Below, piece by piece: positions 13,339-27,864 of a DNA stretch of 41,681 nucleotides. The notes below the pieces were generated by a model that searched no databases, was not told the origin of the DNA, and was given only the letters and a program-made list of their open reading frames with translations. How positions within the stretch are numbered: position 1 is the first letter of the stretch; each line of letters opens with the position of its first letter. The DNA is from an uncultured Rhodothermales bacterium (GTDB taxonomy: Bacteria > Bacteroidota > Rhodothermia > Rhodothermales > UBA10348): assembly GCA_964466675.1 (NCBI GenBank), contig CAYXSE010000004.1:1-41681 (forward strand), in the 5' to 3' direction. Made by a program: the position numbers and the translations under genes.

Positions 13339-14352
13339 GTGCTCAACGGAAAGTCGATACTCATCACCGGCGGGACCGGATCCTTCGGCAAGGCCTTCGT
13401 CGCCGAGACCCTCCGCCGATATCCGAATGTAAAACGGCTGGTCATCTTCAGCCGGGATGAGCTCAAGCAGTACGAGATGGAGCGGATGTACCCGGAGAGC
13501 GAATACCCGGCGGTTCGTTTCTTCCTTGGGGACGTTCGGAACCGGGACAGGCTCAAGCGTGCGTTACAATCCATCGACACCGTGGTCCATGCGGCCGCCC
13601 TAAAGCATGTTCCGGCCGCGGAGTACAACCCGATGGAGTTCATCCGTACCAACATTATCGGCGCGGAAAATCTCATCGAGGCCTCCATGGACGCCGGGGT
13701 TGACCGGATCGTGGCTTTGTCGACGGATAAGGCGGCCGCGCCTATCAACTTGTACGGCGCCACGAAACTTTGTAGCGATAAACTCTTCGTTGCGGCAAAC
13801 AATTATGCGGGAGCGGCGGGCCCCCTCTTCGCGGTGGTCCGGTACGGCAATGTCATGGGCTCCAGAGGCTCGGTCATTCCCTTCTTCCTGGATGAGGCCC
13901 CCCGAGGGGTACTCAAGGTGACAGACCCGCGCATGACGCGCTTCAACATCTCGCTGCAAGAAGCGGTGGACATGGTATTGTGGGCCCTGGAGCGTGCGCA
14001 GGGAGGGGAAATATTCGTTCCCAAAATTCCGTCTTTCCGCCTGATCGACTTGGCGGAGGCGATCGGGCCGAACTGCAAAATAGAGATCGTCGGGATCCGG
14101 CCTGGAGAGAAGGTCCATGAGGAGATGATCACCTCGAGTGACAGCTATACGACGATCGATCTGGGGCAGTACTATGCGATACTCCCCACTCGAGGAAGAG
14201 CCAGTTTTGAGAACTACCCGGCGTATCTGAAGGTGGCCGCGGTTGAACCAGGATTCTCATACAACTCCGAAACGAATCCGAATTTCCTCTCTGTGGAGGA
14301 TATCAGAGAATTGATTCGAGAGCACTTGAACTCAGAGTTCCAGCCTGTTTGA
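13339..14352 (+). CDS. pseB: UDP-N-acetylglucosamine 4,6-dehydratase (inverting), PseB/FlaA1-like
   Basis: KSILITGGTGSFGKAFV, VIFSRDELKQ, GDVRNRDRL, YGATKLCSDKLF (YxxxK) and RYGNVMGSRGSVIPFF are typical of short Polysacc_synt_2/PseB enzymes. The start is uncertain. I used the in-frame GTG at 13339. A GTG at 13246 is an alternative. The track ATG at 13117 overlaps the divergent gene. Confidence 0.8.
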   Translation: MLNGKSILITGGTGSFGKAFVAETLRRYPNVKRLVIFSRDELKQYEMERMYPESEYPAVRFFLGDVRNRDRLKRALQSIDTVVHAAALKHVPAAEYNPMEFIRTNIIGAENLIEASMDAGVDRIVALSTDKAAAPINLYGATKLCSDKLFVAANNYAGAAGPLFAVVRYGNVMGSRGSVIPFFLDEAPRGVLKVTDPRMTRFNISLQEAVDMVLWALERAQGGEIFVPKIPSFRLIDLAEAIGPNCKIEIVGIRPGEKVHEEMITSSDSYTTIDLGQYYAILPTRGRASFENYPAYLKVAAVEPGFSYNSETNPNFLSVEDIRELIREHLNSEFQPV

Positions 14353-15518
14353 GCGATTCTTACATCCCATACGGTCGGCAGAGTATCTCTGACGATGATG
14401 TGGAAGCGGTCGTAGAGGTCCTCCGGTCTGACTTTCTCACGCAGGGCGCTGTCGTGCCCGCCTTCGAGGCGGCATTCGCAACGCTTTGCCAGGCCGACCA
14501 TGCCGTCGCCGTCAACTCGGGGACGAGCGCCCTTCACGTGGCCTGCGCGGCCCTGGGTCTGGGACCCGGACAGTCCCTATGGACGTCGCCAAATACATTT
14601 GTTGCCTCAGCCAATTGTGCCCGTTGCTGCGGAGCGCAGGTCGATTTTGTAGACATAGACCCTCAGACCTACAACATGAGCGTTGAGGCGCTGGCCACCA
14701 AGCTGGAGATGGCGGAGGAAGAGGGGAGTCTGCCGCGGATCGTCGTGCCCGTCCATTTTGCCGGCCAACCATGCGACATGAAGGGCATTCGGATTCTTGC
14801 GGACCGGTATGGCTTCAAGGTGCTGGTGGACGCTTCCCATGCGGTCGGTGCGGAATACGGCGGACGGCCGGTAGGCTGTGGCGAGCACGCTGACATCACC
14901 GTTTTCAGCCTGCATCCGGTAAAGATCATCACGACGGGGGAGGGTGGAATCGCTGTGACCAACGAGGCTGACCTTGCAGATCGCATGCGACGGCTCCGAT
15001 CCCACGGGACCACCCAAGACCCGGCCGAGATGCGGCAGAAACCCGCCGGCCCCTGGTCCTACGAACAGATCGAGTTGGGCTTCAACTATAGACTCACCGA
15101 TCTCTCGGCCGCGCTGGGCATGAGCCAGATGAAGCGCCTGCCAGCGTTCCTTTCACGAAGAAGAGAACTGGCTTCCCGGTACGATACAGCCTTGGGCGGC
15201 TTGCCGTTGGTCAGGCCTTGGCAGCACCCGGATGGCCGTTCAGCCTGGCATCTGTACGTCGTTCAGGTGGATCCCGATGCCGCTCCGATAGACCGCGCTA
15301 CGCTCTTCGAGAAGATGCGTGGCGCGCAAATAGGGGTGAACGTGCACTATATCCCCGTCCACACCCAGCCCTACTATCGAGACCTCGGCTTCTCGGATGG
15401 GTGCTACCCGGTCGCAGAGCGGTTCTACTCAAACGCTATTACACTACCGTTGTACCCCGGCCTGGGCCAAGAATCCTTCGATAGGGTAGTCGATACGCTT
15501 CGCAAAAACTTGGGATGA
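14349..15518 (+). CDS. pseC: DegT/DnrJ/EryC1-family PLP aminotransferase, PseC-like (UDP-4-amino-4,6-dideoxy-sugar transaminase)
   Basis: (M)SDSYIPYGRQSISDDDVEAVVEVLRSDFLTQGAVVPAFE...NSGTSALH...SLHPVKIITTGEGG. The TTG start overlaps the pseB stop (TTGA). Confidence 0.85.
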   Translation: MSDSYIPYGRQSISDDDVEAVVEVLRSDFLTQGAVVPAFEAAFATLCQADHAVAVNSGTSALHVACAALGLGPGQSLWTSPNTFVASANCARCCGAQVDFVDIDPQTYNMSVEALATKLEMAEEEGSLPRIVVPVHFAGQPCDMKGIRILADRYGFKVLVDASHAVGAEYGGRPVGCGEHADITVFSLHPVKIITTGEGGIAVTNEADLADRMRRLRSHGTTQDPAEMRQKPAGPWSYEQIELGFNYRLTDLSAALGMSQMKRLPAFLSRRRELASRYDTALGGLPLVRPWQHPDGRSAWHLYVVQVDPDAAPIDRATLFEKMRGAQIGVNVHYIPVHTQPYYRDLGFSDGCYPVAERFYSNAITLPLYPGLGQESFDRVVDTLRKNLG

Positions 15519-16420
15519 GTACTCTCGAGACCACTGAATCGACTCGTGCGGCCGGCCGAATCGCCCTCGGCACGGCCCAGTTCGGCCTGGACTATGGCAT
15601 TTCGAATTCGGCAGGAAAGGTTTCCTTGGGTGAGGCTGGTCGAATTCTTGAGGCGGCCTCAGCAGCCGGAGTGGATACGCTGGACACGGCGATCGACTAT
15701 GGGACCAGCGAGGCCTGCCTGGGTGAACTGGGGGTTGCAAACTGGCGGATCATCTCGAAGCTTCCGTCGATCCCACAGGGTACTCGGAACGTGGAAGATT
15801 GGGTCCTGGAGGCCGTATCGAGCTCGTTAAAACGCTTGCGGGTTCCGGCCCTCTACGGTCTGTTGCTCCACCGTCCGGAGGATCTCCTGGGCGACTCGGG
15901 TGAGGATCTAGCCCGGGCCATTCTGCGCCTGAAGGCAGATGGCCTGACCCGAAAAATTGGGTTATCAGTCTATTCTCCACTGTTCCTGGAAGTCCTTCGT
16001 GCACGGATCCCGGCAGACATCGTGCAGGCCCCCTTCAACGTATTGGACCGGCGGCTTGTGACCACCGGATGGAGCAAAATCCTGGAGTCGGAAGGCGTGG
16101 AGATCCACACCCGGTCGGCATTTCTACAGGGACTTCTTCTCATGTCGAGTGAAAATCGGCCCGCGCGATTCGATCCCTGGTCAGAAGTCTGGAACGTGTG
16201 GCATTCATGGCTGGAGTCGGAGCAGATCTCTCCGGTCGGCGCGGCCCTTGGATTCGCGCTTGGTCAGGAGCAGACCTCCCGGGTGGTGGTCGGAGTAGAC
16301 ACCGTTGCTCAGATGAACGAGATTCTGGGTGAGGTCGGAGGACCCTTCCCCCATCCACCCGAATCACTATCGGTGGAGGACGAAGGCTTGATCGATCCGT
16401 CACAGTGGTCTTCGGTATGA
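15515..16420 (+). CDS. Aldo/keto reductase family oxidoreductase
   Basis: IALGTAQFGLDYGISN...GVDTLDTAIDYGTSEACLG...IGLSVYSP...QAPFNVLDRR. ATGA overlap with the pseC stop. Confidence 0.75.
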   Translation: MSTLETTESTRAAGRIALGTAQFGLDYGISNSAGKVSLGEAGRILEAASAAGVDTLDTAIDYGTSEACLGELGVANWRIISKLPSIPQGTRNVEDWVLEAVSSSLKRLRVPALYGLLLHRPEDLLGDSGEDLARAILRLKADGLTRKIGLSVYSPLFLEVLRARIPADIVQAPFNVLDRRLVTTGWSKILESEGVEIHTRSAFLQGLLLMSSENRPARFDPWSEVWNVWHSWLESEQISPVGAALGFALGQEQTSRVVVGVDTVAQMNEILGEVGGPFPHPPESLSVEDEGLIDPSQWSSV

Positions 16421-26886: not shown

Positions 26887-26892
26887 GAGTCG

Positions 26893-27864
26893 ATGCGAGT
26901 ATTGGTGACCGGAGGGGCCGGGTTTATTGGCTATCACCTTGTGGAGCGATTGCTCAGGGACGGCCATGAGGTTACATCGATCGACAGCCTGAATGACTAC
27001 TATGATCCGACTCTCAAGGTTGCCCGGTTAGACCAGATCGACTCGACCGAGGCCTATCGGTTTATCCAAATGGACATCTCCGATCGGGAGGCGCTGATGG
27101 AGCTGTTCGAGGCATCTCGATTCGAGGTGGTCGTCAACCTGGCGGCCCAGCCCGGGGTGCGGAACAGCCTCAAGAATCCGTTCTCTTACGTGGACAGCAA
27201 CGTCGTCGGATTCTTGAGTGTCCTGGAGGCCTGCCGGCATCACCCTGTCAAGCACCTCGTCTATGCGTCATCCAGTTCGGTTTATGGGACAGGTTCCACG
27301 GTTCCCTATTCGACCGATCAGCGCGCGGACCGCCCGACTTCGATCTACGCGGCCACCAAGAGAGCGAGTGAACTCATGGCCTACAGTTATTCGGAGCTCT
27401 ACGGGATTCCGAGCACTGGGCTGCGGTTTTTCACGGTCTACGGGCCATGGGGCCGGCCGGACATGGCCTATTTCAAGTTCGCCGAACTCCTTCGCAACGG
27501 CGATACCATCCCCGTCTACAACAACGGCGAATTGAGTCGGGACTTCACGTACATCGACGACATTATCGAATCAACAGCTCGAGTGATTCCTCTGGCTCCC
27601 GAAGCGAACGTGCCCCATGTCCTGTTCAACATCGGAAGGGGAGAGCCGGTGAACCTGCTCGCCTTCATCACCATACTCGAAGACGAATTGGGAATCTGTG
27701 GCACCAAGGAATTGTTGCCCATGCAGCCGGGGGAGATGTATACGACCTACGCCGACACTCGGGACCTTGAAGGAGCAGTCGATTTCGTCCCACAGGTTTC
27801 TCTCAGGGATGGAATCCGACGCTTCGCGGCTTGGTACCGGGAGTACCGGGGAGTGAAAGGCTAG
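26893..27864 (+). CDS. NAD-dependent SDR epimerase, UDP-glucuronate 4-epimerase-like
   Basis: MRVLVTGGAGFIGYHL, NDYYDPTLKVARL, YASSSSVYG, YAATKRASE (YxxxK) and RFFTVYGPWGRPDMA are the hallmark strings of the CapI/Gla-type UDP-GlcA 4-epimerases. Confidence 0.8.
   Translation: MRVLVTGGAGFIGYHLVERLLRDGHEVTSIDSLNDYYDPTLKVARLDQIDSTEAYRFIQMDISDREALMELFEASRFEVVVNLAAQPGVRNSLKNPFSYVDSNVVGFLSVLEACRHHPVKHLVYASSSSVYGTGSTVPYSTDQRADRPTSIYAATKRASELMAYSYSELYGIPSTGLRFFTVYGPWGRPDMAYFKFAELLRNGDTIPVYNNGELSRDFTYIDDIIESTARVIPLAPEANVPHVLFNIGRGEPVNLLAFITILEDELGICGTKELLPMQPGEMYTTYADTRDLEGAVDFVPQVSLRDGIRRFAAWYREYRGVKG

Follow-up and report, generated by a model that had tools for sequence, protein, structure and literature searches.

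Nonulosonic acids (NulOs) are found on flagella, S-layers, capsules and lipopolysaccharide, where they influence how cells move, adsorb phages and are recognized by the immune system. Their chemical diversity, as mass-spectrometric surveys show, reaches far beyond what known pathways explain. Here we describe a gene cluster for a sugar of this class on contig CAYXSE010000004.1 of an uncultured Rhodothermales bacterium (assembly GCA_964466675.1); the whole stretch that was analyzed, positions 1 to 41,681 of the contig, is referred to as the window. Positions 13339-27864 hold 13 uninterrupted open reading frames (ORFs), g1 to g13, all on the plus strand, open and in frame:

13339..14352, plus strand, g1: PseB, inverting UDP-GlcNAc 4,6-dehydratase (TIGR03589 500 bits, cut-off 407.75; Pfam Polysacc_synt_2)
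14349..15518, plus strand, g2: PseC, UDP-4-amino-4,6-dideoxy-L-AltNAc transaminase (TIGR03588 536 bits, cut-off 423.5)
15515..16420, plus strand, g3: aldo/keto reductase (AKR; Pfam Aldo_ket_red, 92 bits)
16417..18471, plus strand, g4: fusion of a CTP_transf_3 domain (residues 1 to about 240) with a class-III aminotransferase (about 255-684), from Pfam
18471..19349, plus strand, g5: SAF-less NeuB, SfmA/So3261-like by architecture and context (Pfam NeuB, 189 bits)
19346..20383, plus strand, g6: PseG-like UDP-sugar hydrolase of a sister subfamily of PseG (TIGR03590 129.4 bits, cut-off 153.55)
20380..21645, plus strand, g7: iron-dependent alcohol dehydrogenase (Fe-ADH), first gene of the cassette described below (Pfam Fe-ADH)
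21635..22147, plus strand, g8: alpha (PYR) subunit of a thiamine diphosphate (ThDP) decarboxylase (TIGR03297 74 bits, cut-off 312.5; ComD 55 bits)
22140..22607, plus strand, g9: beta (PP) subunit of the ThDP decarboxylase (Pfam TPP_enzyme_C; TIGR03297 63.5 bits, cut-off 312.5)
22600..23664, plus strand, g10: NeuB+SAF paralog with an altered sugar site (NeuB model 246 bits, PseI model 186 bits, both below cut-off)
23665..24885, plus strand, g11: ATP-grasp carboxylate-amine ligase of the L-amino-acid-ligase type (Pfam LAL_C2, ATP-grasp_3, ATPgrasp_N)
24886..26886, plus strand, g12: GH57-like two-domain protein (GH57 N-terminal match; AlphaFold2 model with pLDDT 86, pTM 0.88)
26893..27864, plus strand, g13: extended short-chain dehydrogenase/reductase (SDR), UDP-glucuronate 4-epimerase-like (5u4q 399 bits; 6zl6, the Bacillus cereus UDP-GlcA 4-epimerase, 175 bits)

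The successive overlaps from g1 to g10 amount to 4, 4, 4, 1, 4, 4, 11, 8 and 8 nt, the pairs g10/g11 and g11/g12 abut, and a single 6-nt gap (26887-26892) separates g12 from g13. The non-ATG starts of g1, g2, g5 and g10 match the N-termini of homologs and the model coordinates. Given 12 consecutive junctions with a spacing of no more than 6 nt, a single translationally coupled operon is the sole sensible reading, and it is one for a sialic-acid-like surface sugar. The 13 ORFs and the junctions listed in the initial annotation were reproduced exactly, and all of its family calls reappeared in profile searches with Pfam and TIGR models. The seven extra genes, which it had grouped as one module, separate instead into three parts: the SAF-less NeuB (g5); an EpaA-like AKR and CTP_transf_3 pair with a fused aminotransferase (g3, g4); and a cassette of Fe-ADH, ThDP decarboxylase, second NeuB (NeuB2), ATP-grasp ligase and GH57-like protein (g7-g12).

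Only the first two steps of the canonical pseudaminic acid (Pse) pathway are present. Curated equivalog models, the cut-offs of which both proteins pass, identify g1 and g2 as the PseB and PseC predicted to convert UDP-GlcNAc into UDP-4-amino-4,6-dideoxy-beta-L-AltNAc. A PseH counterpart is lacking, as had been claimed: scans of g1-g13 and of the other window ORFs covered gave no match to GNAT or any further acetyltransferase family. The hydrolase g6 stays below the PseG cut-off, as do its counterparts in two related loci, L001 and L003 (132-144 bits on TIGR03590, cut-off 153.55; L-numbers such as L001, L005 or L091 are labels of related loci compared with the window). Neither NeuB-family protein reaches the PseI equivalog (TIGR03586, cut-off 340; g5 150 bits, g10 186 bits), both scoring higher on the NeuB model, and the N-terminal domain of g4 has no match to the PseF equivalog TIGR03584 at E<=1e-3. 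With no PseH, no match to PseF, and scores below cut-off for the PseG-like protein and both NeuB proteins, this is not the canonical pathway. In common with the CMP-Pse pathway of Campylobacter and Helicobacter (PseB, PseC, PseH, PseG, PseI and PseF), the window holds true PseB and PseC, a PseG-like hydrolase, NeuB-family synthases and a CTP_transf_3 domain; it differs in the missing or divergent steps just named and in seven further enzymes. The earlier view of a NulO operon that opens with true PseB and PseC and lacks PseH is thus borne out. Plain Pse5Ac7Ac is, in line with that view, a very unlikely product. Its cytidylyltransferase was right as to the CTP_transf_3 domain, but this is the N-terminal part of an aminotransferase fusion and has no PseF match at that threshold. 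The label "PseI-like" for 22600-23664 probably does not hold, because g10 scores higher on the NeuB model than on PseI, lies contiguous with the ThDP decarboxylase genes and has an altered sugar site.

The SAF-less g5 belongs to a family of more than 7000 homologs of about 285 aa, with 65-70% identity across phyla. Both g5 and its family retain all residues checked against NeuB of Neisseria meningitidis (NmNeuB), namely the metal ligands H215 and H236, the catalytic residues E25, E134 and E234, and K53, K129, S132, S154 and S213, which bind phosphoenolpyruvate (PEP). A SAF-less NeuB is the sole NeuB beside PseB, PseC, CTP_transf_3 and PseG-like genes in L001 and L006. In Syntrophotalea carbinolica and related contigs it lies within flagellin/Maf islands that have no other NeuB and no GNAT, in the order PseB-PseC-short NeuB-SDR-AKR-CTP_transf_3-PseG-like. 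The closest genetic evidence comes from Shewanella oneidensis MR-1, in which SfmA (So3261), 290 aa long, has a NeuB domain only and flagellin glycosylation is lost when it is deleted. That organism has PseB and PseC with no clear PseH, PseG, PseI or PseF (PMC3765264; bioRxiv 10.1101/2023.12.03.569772). On the strength of this conserved family, its position as sole NeuB in flagellin islands, the intact catalytic residues and the genetic requirement for So3261, we take g5, not g10, to be probably the synthase of a Pse-type nine-carbon NulO. If so, the very large SAF-less NeuB family can be used as the working synthase of PseH-less pathways.

The second NeuB, g10, is conserved in a different manner. 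In five orthologs of 63-78% identity the ligands of metal and PEP are unchanged, and all five carry G133H, E134S, F288A/N and R314Q (NmNeuB numbering). A canonical NeuB in the same contig as one of these orthologs (L090b) keeps Gly/Asp, Trp and Arg at the substituted positions. In NmNeuB, F288 and R314 lie at the site that contacts the sugar and its N-acetyl group, and the SAF domain has no conserved catalytic residue other than R314. The altered sugar-site residues, together with the position directly after the decarboxylase, suggest that g10 may condense PEP with a different, probably smaller, aldehyde supplied by g8/g9, and g10 is probably not the PseI equivalent.

The operon shares its overall frame with the sfm genes of S. 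oneidensis. The sfmABCDE set (SO_3261-3265) encodes the NeuB-only SfmA, the ThDP enzyme SfmB, the SDR SfmC, the methyltransferase SfmD and the ATP-grasp protein SfmE (PMC3765264). By domain, all of the sfm-type set is present here: PseB and PseC, a NeuB-only protein, a ThDP enzyme, a reductase and an ATP-grasp ligase, with no PseH. In both systems the ThDP enzyme and reductase adjoin an ATP-grasp carboxylate-amine ligase, and both have a non-canonical cytidylyltransferase, which is the large SO_3269 in Shewanella. The Shewanella ThDP enzyme differs in being 581 aa long, acetolactate synthase (ALS)-like and accompanied by an SDR and a methyltransferase. The window has instead a split decarboxylase resembling phosphonopyruvate decarboxylase (Ppd) and ComDE, an Fe-ADH and a second NeuB paralog, besides an AKR, a class-III aminotransferase and a GH57-like gene, and it has no Maf, flagellin or methyltransferase gene. 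The Shewanella glycan contains a 274-Da residue, C11H18N2O6, that corresponds to mono-N-acetyl Pse (PMC3765264; bioRxiv 10.1101/2023.12.03.569772), and an outer, nitrogen-free moiety of 236 Da, C9H16O7, with 0-2 methyl groups. Loss of the ATP-grasp gene leads to a smaller mass loss than loss of sfmA-D, and the 2023 preprint still treats the glycan structure as unresolved (bioRxiv 10.1101/2023.12.03.569772). Taken as an acyl residue, C9H16O7 would by simple arithmetic derive from C9H18O8, a hexahydroxynonanoic acid without nitrogen, which is the kind of product expected from an enzyme that forms carbon-carbon bonds acting together with a reductase. By analogy with this system, g11, the best solved relative of which is the L-amino-acid ligase BL00235 (3vot), would take an SfmE-like role.

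Bacillus subtilis sps (spsC-G), a legionaminic acid (Leg) system, had previously been named as the nearest analog. It has in common with the window an SpsF-like CTP_transf_3 protein, an SpsE-like NeuB and an SpsG/PseG-like hydrolase, and for g5 as well as g10 SpsE (1vli) ranks among the best solved relatives. The sps set nevertheless encodes the GNAT SpsD, makes Leg without the inverting dehydratase logic of PseB, and has no ThDP, Fe-ADH, ATP-grasp, GH57, AKR or class-III aminotransferase genes. Closer analogs are S. oneidensis sfmABCDE (PMC3765264) and EpaA/EpaB of Acinetobacter baumannii (PMC12053666).

How firmly the cassette genes belong together was assessed by mapping the window proteins onto 49 loci that encode a g8 homolog of at least 40% identity, the denominators being the testable loci. 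In 36 of 37 loci the Fe-ADH gene immediately precedes that of the ThDP alpha subunit, and the beta subunit is next after alpha in 43 of 44. A g10-type NeuB comes next after g9 in 28/34 loci; the six loci without it have a reversed, more distant NeuB-like gene at that position. The ATP-grasp ligase is next after g10 in 23/26 loci, and a GH57-like gene lies within 6.5 kb of the cassette in 12/14. Nearly the full gene set of the window recurs in L005, L014, L103-L105, L108 and L122, with the order g2, g3, g4, a 5-kb interval, g7, g8, g9, g10, g11, g5, PseG-like and g12 in L105. The belief that the combination lacks precedent does not hold, as near-identical gene sets occur in many loci from metagenomes and metagenome-assembled genomes (MAGs). 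This cassette of five to six genes was seen in about 50 loci spread over many phyla, and its sources are marine, groundwater and sediment metagenomes and MAGs of several phyla. It adjoins flagellin and Maf genes in L089 and L090 and sits in a Wzx-type polysaccharide locus in L108. Literature searches returned no characterized cluster with a Ppd-like/NeuB2 cassette.

Related islands place other ThDP enzymes at the same point. In L003, L009, L013 and L015 an ALS-like ThDP enzyme and an SDR hold the cassette position, which is the arrangement of Shewanella SfmB/SfmC, and in L006 a transketolase-like enzyme is found there; the same frame can thus carry ALS-like, transketolase-like or Ppd-like ThDP families at the same place. 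Because ThDP families are swapped in similar islands, we regard the ATP-grasp ligase and the GH57-like protein as constant partners and the ThDP enzyme with its reductase as the variable part. Some loci have multiplied individual genes. Three ATP-grasp ligase genes each are present in L011 (Acidobacteria; 5668-7940, 11536-12930) and L012 (Acidimicrobiia; 4027-6410, 8217-9449), which suggests multiple or sequential amide-linked additions there. Two tandem Fe-ADH genes occur in many cassette loci (L014:14344-16624; L090:7738-9632; L113:7754-10011), often preceded by genes for S-adenosylmethionine (SAM) or B12-radical-SAM methyltransferases; in the window there is one Fe-ADH gene, and methyltransferases are absent.

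The decarboxylase itself is a two-domain ThDP enzyme without a middle domain, split as are ComD and ComE, and the Ppd and ComDE models score best for g8 and g9. The scores are at most a quarter of the Ppd cut-off and well under half of those for ComD and ComE. The g8 protein forms a discrete subfamily of the Ppd/ComD clade, with 10 representative clusters at E<=1e-30 as against 829 at E<=1e-3, and its ThDP-activating Glu55 is invariant. The operon further differs from Ppd and ComDE systems in that no PEP mutase is present and a NeuB paralog follows. For g7 the best match among hidden Markov models is the Fe-ADH of phosphonate clusters, TIGR03405, with 101 bits against a cut-off of 424, and sulfoacetaldehyde reductase is also listed. 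A KdnB-type sugar oxidase, following the logic of Kdo8N synthesis, was considered for g7 and rejected, as KdnB (5k8c) scores 43 bits and generic Fe-ADHs score 81. The g7 gene also contains a repeat:

20685..20792, plus strand: 39-bp tandem repeat of 2.8 copies inside g7 (81% match)

The three 13-aa units that it encodes (..GPRSVVGLGDA..) add about 35 aa to the Fe-ADH immediately ahead of its GGGS loop for nucleotide binding. At this position the Fe-ADH of L005 carries an insert that is shorter and not repetitive and other orthologs have none, which points to a lineage-specific loop.

The AKR and cytidylyltransferase genes form a second conserved unit. The N-terminal domain of g4 finds its best match in KdsB-type models (64 bits) and is a probable CMP-NulO synthetase. 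The C-terminal domain resembles glutamate-1-semialdehyde (GSA) aminomutase, its closest solved relatives being GSA aminomutases and sugar C-6' aminotransferases. AKR precedes CTP_transf_3 in L005 and L009-L016. The full order AKR, CTP_transf_3 and class-III aminotransferase is conserved at 47-68% identity in Rhodothermales, Pelagibacter, Acidobacteria, Acidimicrobiia, Betaproteobacteria, Verrucomicrobiota and others, the two parts of g4 being fused or adjacent at 63-68% identity across phyla. They constitute one ORF in the window, L005 and L009, and two overlapping genes in the Pelagibacter, Acidobacteria, Acidimicrobiia and Betaproteobacteria loci (L010-L015 compared).

A related pair of domains has been characterized in A. 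baumannii, where EpaA, a fusion of CTP_transf_3 and AKR, works with the SDR EpaB to turn Pse5Ac7Ac into its 8-epimer, as determined by nuclear magnetic resonance; both proteins are prophage-encoded (PMC12053666). A similar fusion in a Vibrio Pse cluster has been noted and is uncharacterized. The product of g3 and the N-terminus of g4 have the same two domains, here as adjacent genes, and the pair is kept in related loci. EpaA differs in being a single fusion in the order CTP_transf_3 then AKR with EpaB as partner, whereas the window has a fused class-III aminotransferase as partner and no adh_short SDR. A tblastn search with the AKR against a phage collection gave weak Listeria phage matches and no EpaA-like match, so that the link to EpaA is one of domain architecture. 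As a hypothesis only, we suggest that the trio may combine CMP activation with tailoring of a side-chain carbon, in which oxidation and amination could replace the oxidation and reduction of the Epa system. This makes the AKR, CTP_transf_3 and aminotransferase genes testable as a variant of the Epa logic of 8-epimerization.

The GH57-like protein g12 belongs to a family of at least 3284 proteins of about 655 aa and about 50% identity, which the source records annotate only as GH57 or hypothetical. A Foldseek search with the predicted model returned the GH57 glucanotransferase 1k1x as best match (E 2.5e-22), followed by GH38 mannosidases. In the alignment, residue E121 corresponds to the nucleophile E123 and D222 to the acid/base D214, and neither varies among 30 sequences. 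Judging by the model, g12 is probably an active retaining glycosidase or transglycosidase. A role as deacetylase of the GH57/GH38/CE4 superfamily was rejected and a glycosidase-type active site preferred, because neither of the catalytic residues of GH57 varies and the fold resembles GH57 and GH38 enzymes across both domains. Compared with the GH57 4-alpha-glucanotransferase of Thermococcus litoralis (1K1W) and with GH38 mannosidases, g12 shares the predicted fold, with its (beta/alpha)7 barrel, and keeps both GH57 catalytic residues, but its identity is only 12-13% and its context is a cytoplasmic NulO pathway, not alpha-glucan metabolism.

Taken together, these comparisons suggest that the operon is a new cassette variant of the partly characterized sfm/Epa-type systems for Pse derivatives, one that is widespread in environmental bacteria. 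It is, in our judgment, an even call that it makes a CMP-activated, non-canonical Pse-type NulO whose 7-amino group bears an amide-linked hydroxy acid built by the cassette, in place of acetyl. PseB and PseC would produce UDP-4-amino-4,6-dideoxy-beta-L-AltNAc from UDP-GlcNAc, and we infer every reaction after this point. The ThDP decarboxylase g8/g9 would turn a 3-substituted pyruvate into an aldehyde, which g10 would condense with PEP to a 4-hydroxy-2-oxo acid, and the Fe-ADH g7 would reduce this acid. The ligase g11 would activate the carboxylate of the cassette acid and link it as an amide to the free sugar amine, and would in this manner stand in for PseH. The PseG-like g6 would free the hexose, the SAF-less g5 would condense it with PEP, and the CTP_transf_3 domain of g4 would make the CMP-sugar. 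The AKR g3 and the aminotransferase domain of g4 may tailor the NulO in an EpaA-like manner, likely at one of the side-chain carbons, for instance C8, through an oxidation and a subsequent amination or epimerization. An acyl group built by the embedded enzymes had already been entertained in the initial annotation, and such a group, N-linked by the ATP-grasp ligase, is the best reading of the genes.

We also put forward, more tentatively and with doubt prevailing, a widespread "two-NeuB" pathway in which the altered NeuB, the split ThDP enzyme and the Fe-ADH build a PEP-derived 3-deoxy hydroxy acid, which the ATP-grasp ligase then amide-links to an unacetylated Pse-type amine, while the AKR and aminotransferase may add a third amino group. 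If true, it would constitute a new class of N-acylated NulOs, would give a NeuB-family enzyme a role other than that of a sugar synthase, and would explain the type of outer moiety found on Shewanella flagellin. In any case, the cassette offers a defined gene-to-structure hypothesis for a class of uncharacterized N-acyl NulOs, and the cluster supplies candidate enzymes for chemoenzymatic Pse derivatives: a ligase, promiscuous synthases and a CMP-activating enzyme.

Several points weigh against an amide-linked, cassette-built acid. The GH57-like g12 has no place in the proposed scheme, and the class-III aminotransferase tracks the AKR and CTP_transf_3 genes, not the cassette, across loci. The link of g5 and g11 to Sfm proteins is drawn by analogy from length, domain content and gene context. 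In Shewanella the amide linkage of the outer moiety is only presumed, and C9H16O7 would equally fit a methyl-octose residue. The order of the cassette reactions, the 2-oxo acid as substrate and the site of ligation are likewise what we infer. Furthermore, the g10-type enzyme could itself be a NulO synthase: in L091 it is the only NeuB within 10 kb of PseB, PseC, CTP_transf_3 and PseG-like genes, and in L089, L110 and L113 no other NeuB lies within about 10 kb of it. These loci lend support to a reversal of roles, in which g10 would be the main Pse-type synthase, g5 would have an auxiliary part or synthesize another ulosonic acid, and the ThDP enzyme and Fe-ADH would act elsewhere; the SAF domain of g10, typical of characterized synthases, fits this as well. 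We nonetheless hold such a reversal to be unlikely, given the contiguity of g10 with the decarboxylase subunits in 28/34 loci and the conservation of its substitutions at E134, at the N-acetyl-contacting F288 and at R314. The SAF-less type is, moreover, the sole NeuB in sfm-like islands and genetically required in Shewanella, and the window has no NeuC/LegG, LegB/C or other genes of a second NulO pathway. An ordinary Pse5Ac7Ac made with a PseH encoded elsewhere, the extra genes serving an unrelated sugar or metabolite, has in its favor that only 41.7 kb of the genome are in view, so that a GNAT may lie elsewhere. It is made highly improbable by the 12 tightly spaced junctions, the three unmatched PseG, PseI and PseF equivalogs, the conservation of the GNAT-less combination across phyla, and the fact that Shewanella, with the same frame, makes a mono-N-acetyl Pse.

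Two further alternatives concern the ThDP enzyme. The first assumes that g8/g9 is a phosphonopyruvate or sulfopyruvate decarboxylase, whose aldehyde would be aminated by the class-III aminotransferase to 2-aminoethylphosphonate or taurine, or reduced by the Fe-ADH, with the ATP-grasp enzyme coupling the amine to a sugar carboxylate. The best models for g8/g9 (Ppd TIGR03297, ComD/E) and for the Fe-ADH (TIGR03405) invite this view, as do an omega-type aminotransferase and a cytidylyltransferase in the operon, but the scores are far below cut-off (74 and 63 versus 312; 101 versus 424), and the aminotransferase is linked to the AKR and CTP_transf_3 genes, not to the decarboxylase. Scanning for the PEP mutase motif EDKx5NS gave no match in the window or in 48 of 49 related loci, those with a g8 homolog of at least 40% identity included, which disfavors a phosphonate product. 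Among related loci the motif occurs only in the distant true Ppd locus L137, where EDKLFPKVNS stands directly upstream of a g8/g9-like decarboxylase of 38% identity (L137:1026-2800); the scan has its positive control in this locus, which is a genuine cluster for phosphonates. As the g8 subfamily is set apart from other Ppd and ComD proteins and the neighboring NeuB paralog would be left unexplained, we give phosphonate or sulfonate decoration little credence. The second alternative has the ThDP enzyme act on the sugar, either by adding a carbon branch to the 4-keto intermediate of PseB in a YerE-like manner, or by decarboxylating the NeuB product to a chain-shortened 2-deoxy-aldose that the Fe-ADH would reduce. 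Three unrelated ThDP families occupy the same position beside a reductase in related islands, an arrangement that YerE/YerF and the transketolase-type systems for two-carbon branching resemble, and the 2-oxo acids that NeuB enzymes make belong to the substrate class of ThDP decarboxylases. Against this, enzymes of the Ppd/ComDE type simply decarboxylate, CTP_transf_3 could not attach CMP to a NulO that has been decarboxylated, the ATP-grasp partner (23/26) needs a carboxylate and an amine, and the Shewanella glycan comprises an intact 274-Da NulO and a separable moiety. A sugar-acting ThDP enzyme is in our opinion quite improbable.

The remaining features of interest flank the pathway genes:

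13225..13254, plus strand: promoter-like site upstream of g1 (consensus scan, weak candidate)
27861..29303, minus strand: convergent GT-B-type transferase of 480 aa, weak candidate for the NulO transferase (Pfam Glyphos_transf, 35 bits)
29168..31870, minus strand: two-domain GT2 + GT4 glycosyltransferase of 900 aa (Pfam Glycos_transf_2, Glycos_transf_1)

An epimerase follows the GH57-like gene in L003 just as g13 does here. The convergent transferase also matches TIGR04396 (32 bits) and the BFO_1060 family (23 bits), both below cut-off. BFO_1060 of Tannerella forsythia is in a family of transferases for Pse and Leg derivatives, of which Tanf_01245 and TFUB4_00887 have been shown as such by knock-out. 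The larger glycosyltransferase probably builds the acceptor glycan. As listed, the two minus-strand ORFs overlap by 136 nt (29168-29303), so that the true start of the 27861-29303 gene probably lies further downstream. The scanned ORFs of the 41.7-kb window include no flagellin, Maf/MptE-like, GNAT or PEP mutase gene. From the UDP-GlcA-epimerase-like g13, the convergent transferases and the absence of Maf and flagellin in the window, a surface polysaccharide or a general protein glycan is more likely as acceptor here than flagellin.

The consensus promoter scan returned 2 sites in 19 kb, compared with 5.4 expected; the site at 13225-13254 fits by position, its match is not significant, and the promoter and terminator scan was uninformative beyond it. 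The stop codons of g13 and of the convergent transferase overlap by 4 nt (27861-27864), which leaves no space for a terminator. Upstream of the operon lie housekeeping genes (MutY, an Omp85-family protein, RsmE, NIF3, a major facilitator superfamily transporter) and a divergent class-V aminotransferase at 12012-13178 on the minus strand, which is SufS/EgtE-like with weak partial PhnW matches and shares a 160-bp promoter region with the operon. Its link to the operon is doubtful, since a 41%-identical homolog lies near a CTP_transf_3 gene in only one other locus (L027). Several long ORFs run antisense or out of frame to real genes (12303-13304, 23941-24777, 25375-26082 and others); those scanned gave no family matches, and they are the usual artifacts of high-GC DNA, not genes. 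The genome scan returned no relative above 68% identity. Downstream, the two convergent transferases are followed by a complete coproporphyrin-dependent heme operon on the minus strand (32028-41436), with genes for ferrochelatase, HemL, a HemY-type oxidase, HemE, a ChdC/HemQ-like protein, HemB, HemD, HemC and HemA. Together with the Omp85-family gene at 4613-6526, this operon points to a diderm bacterium that uses the "Gram-positive-type" heme route.

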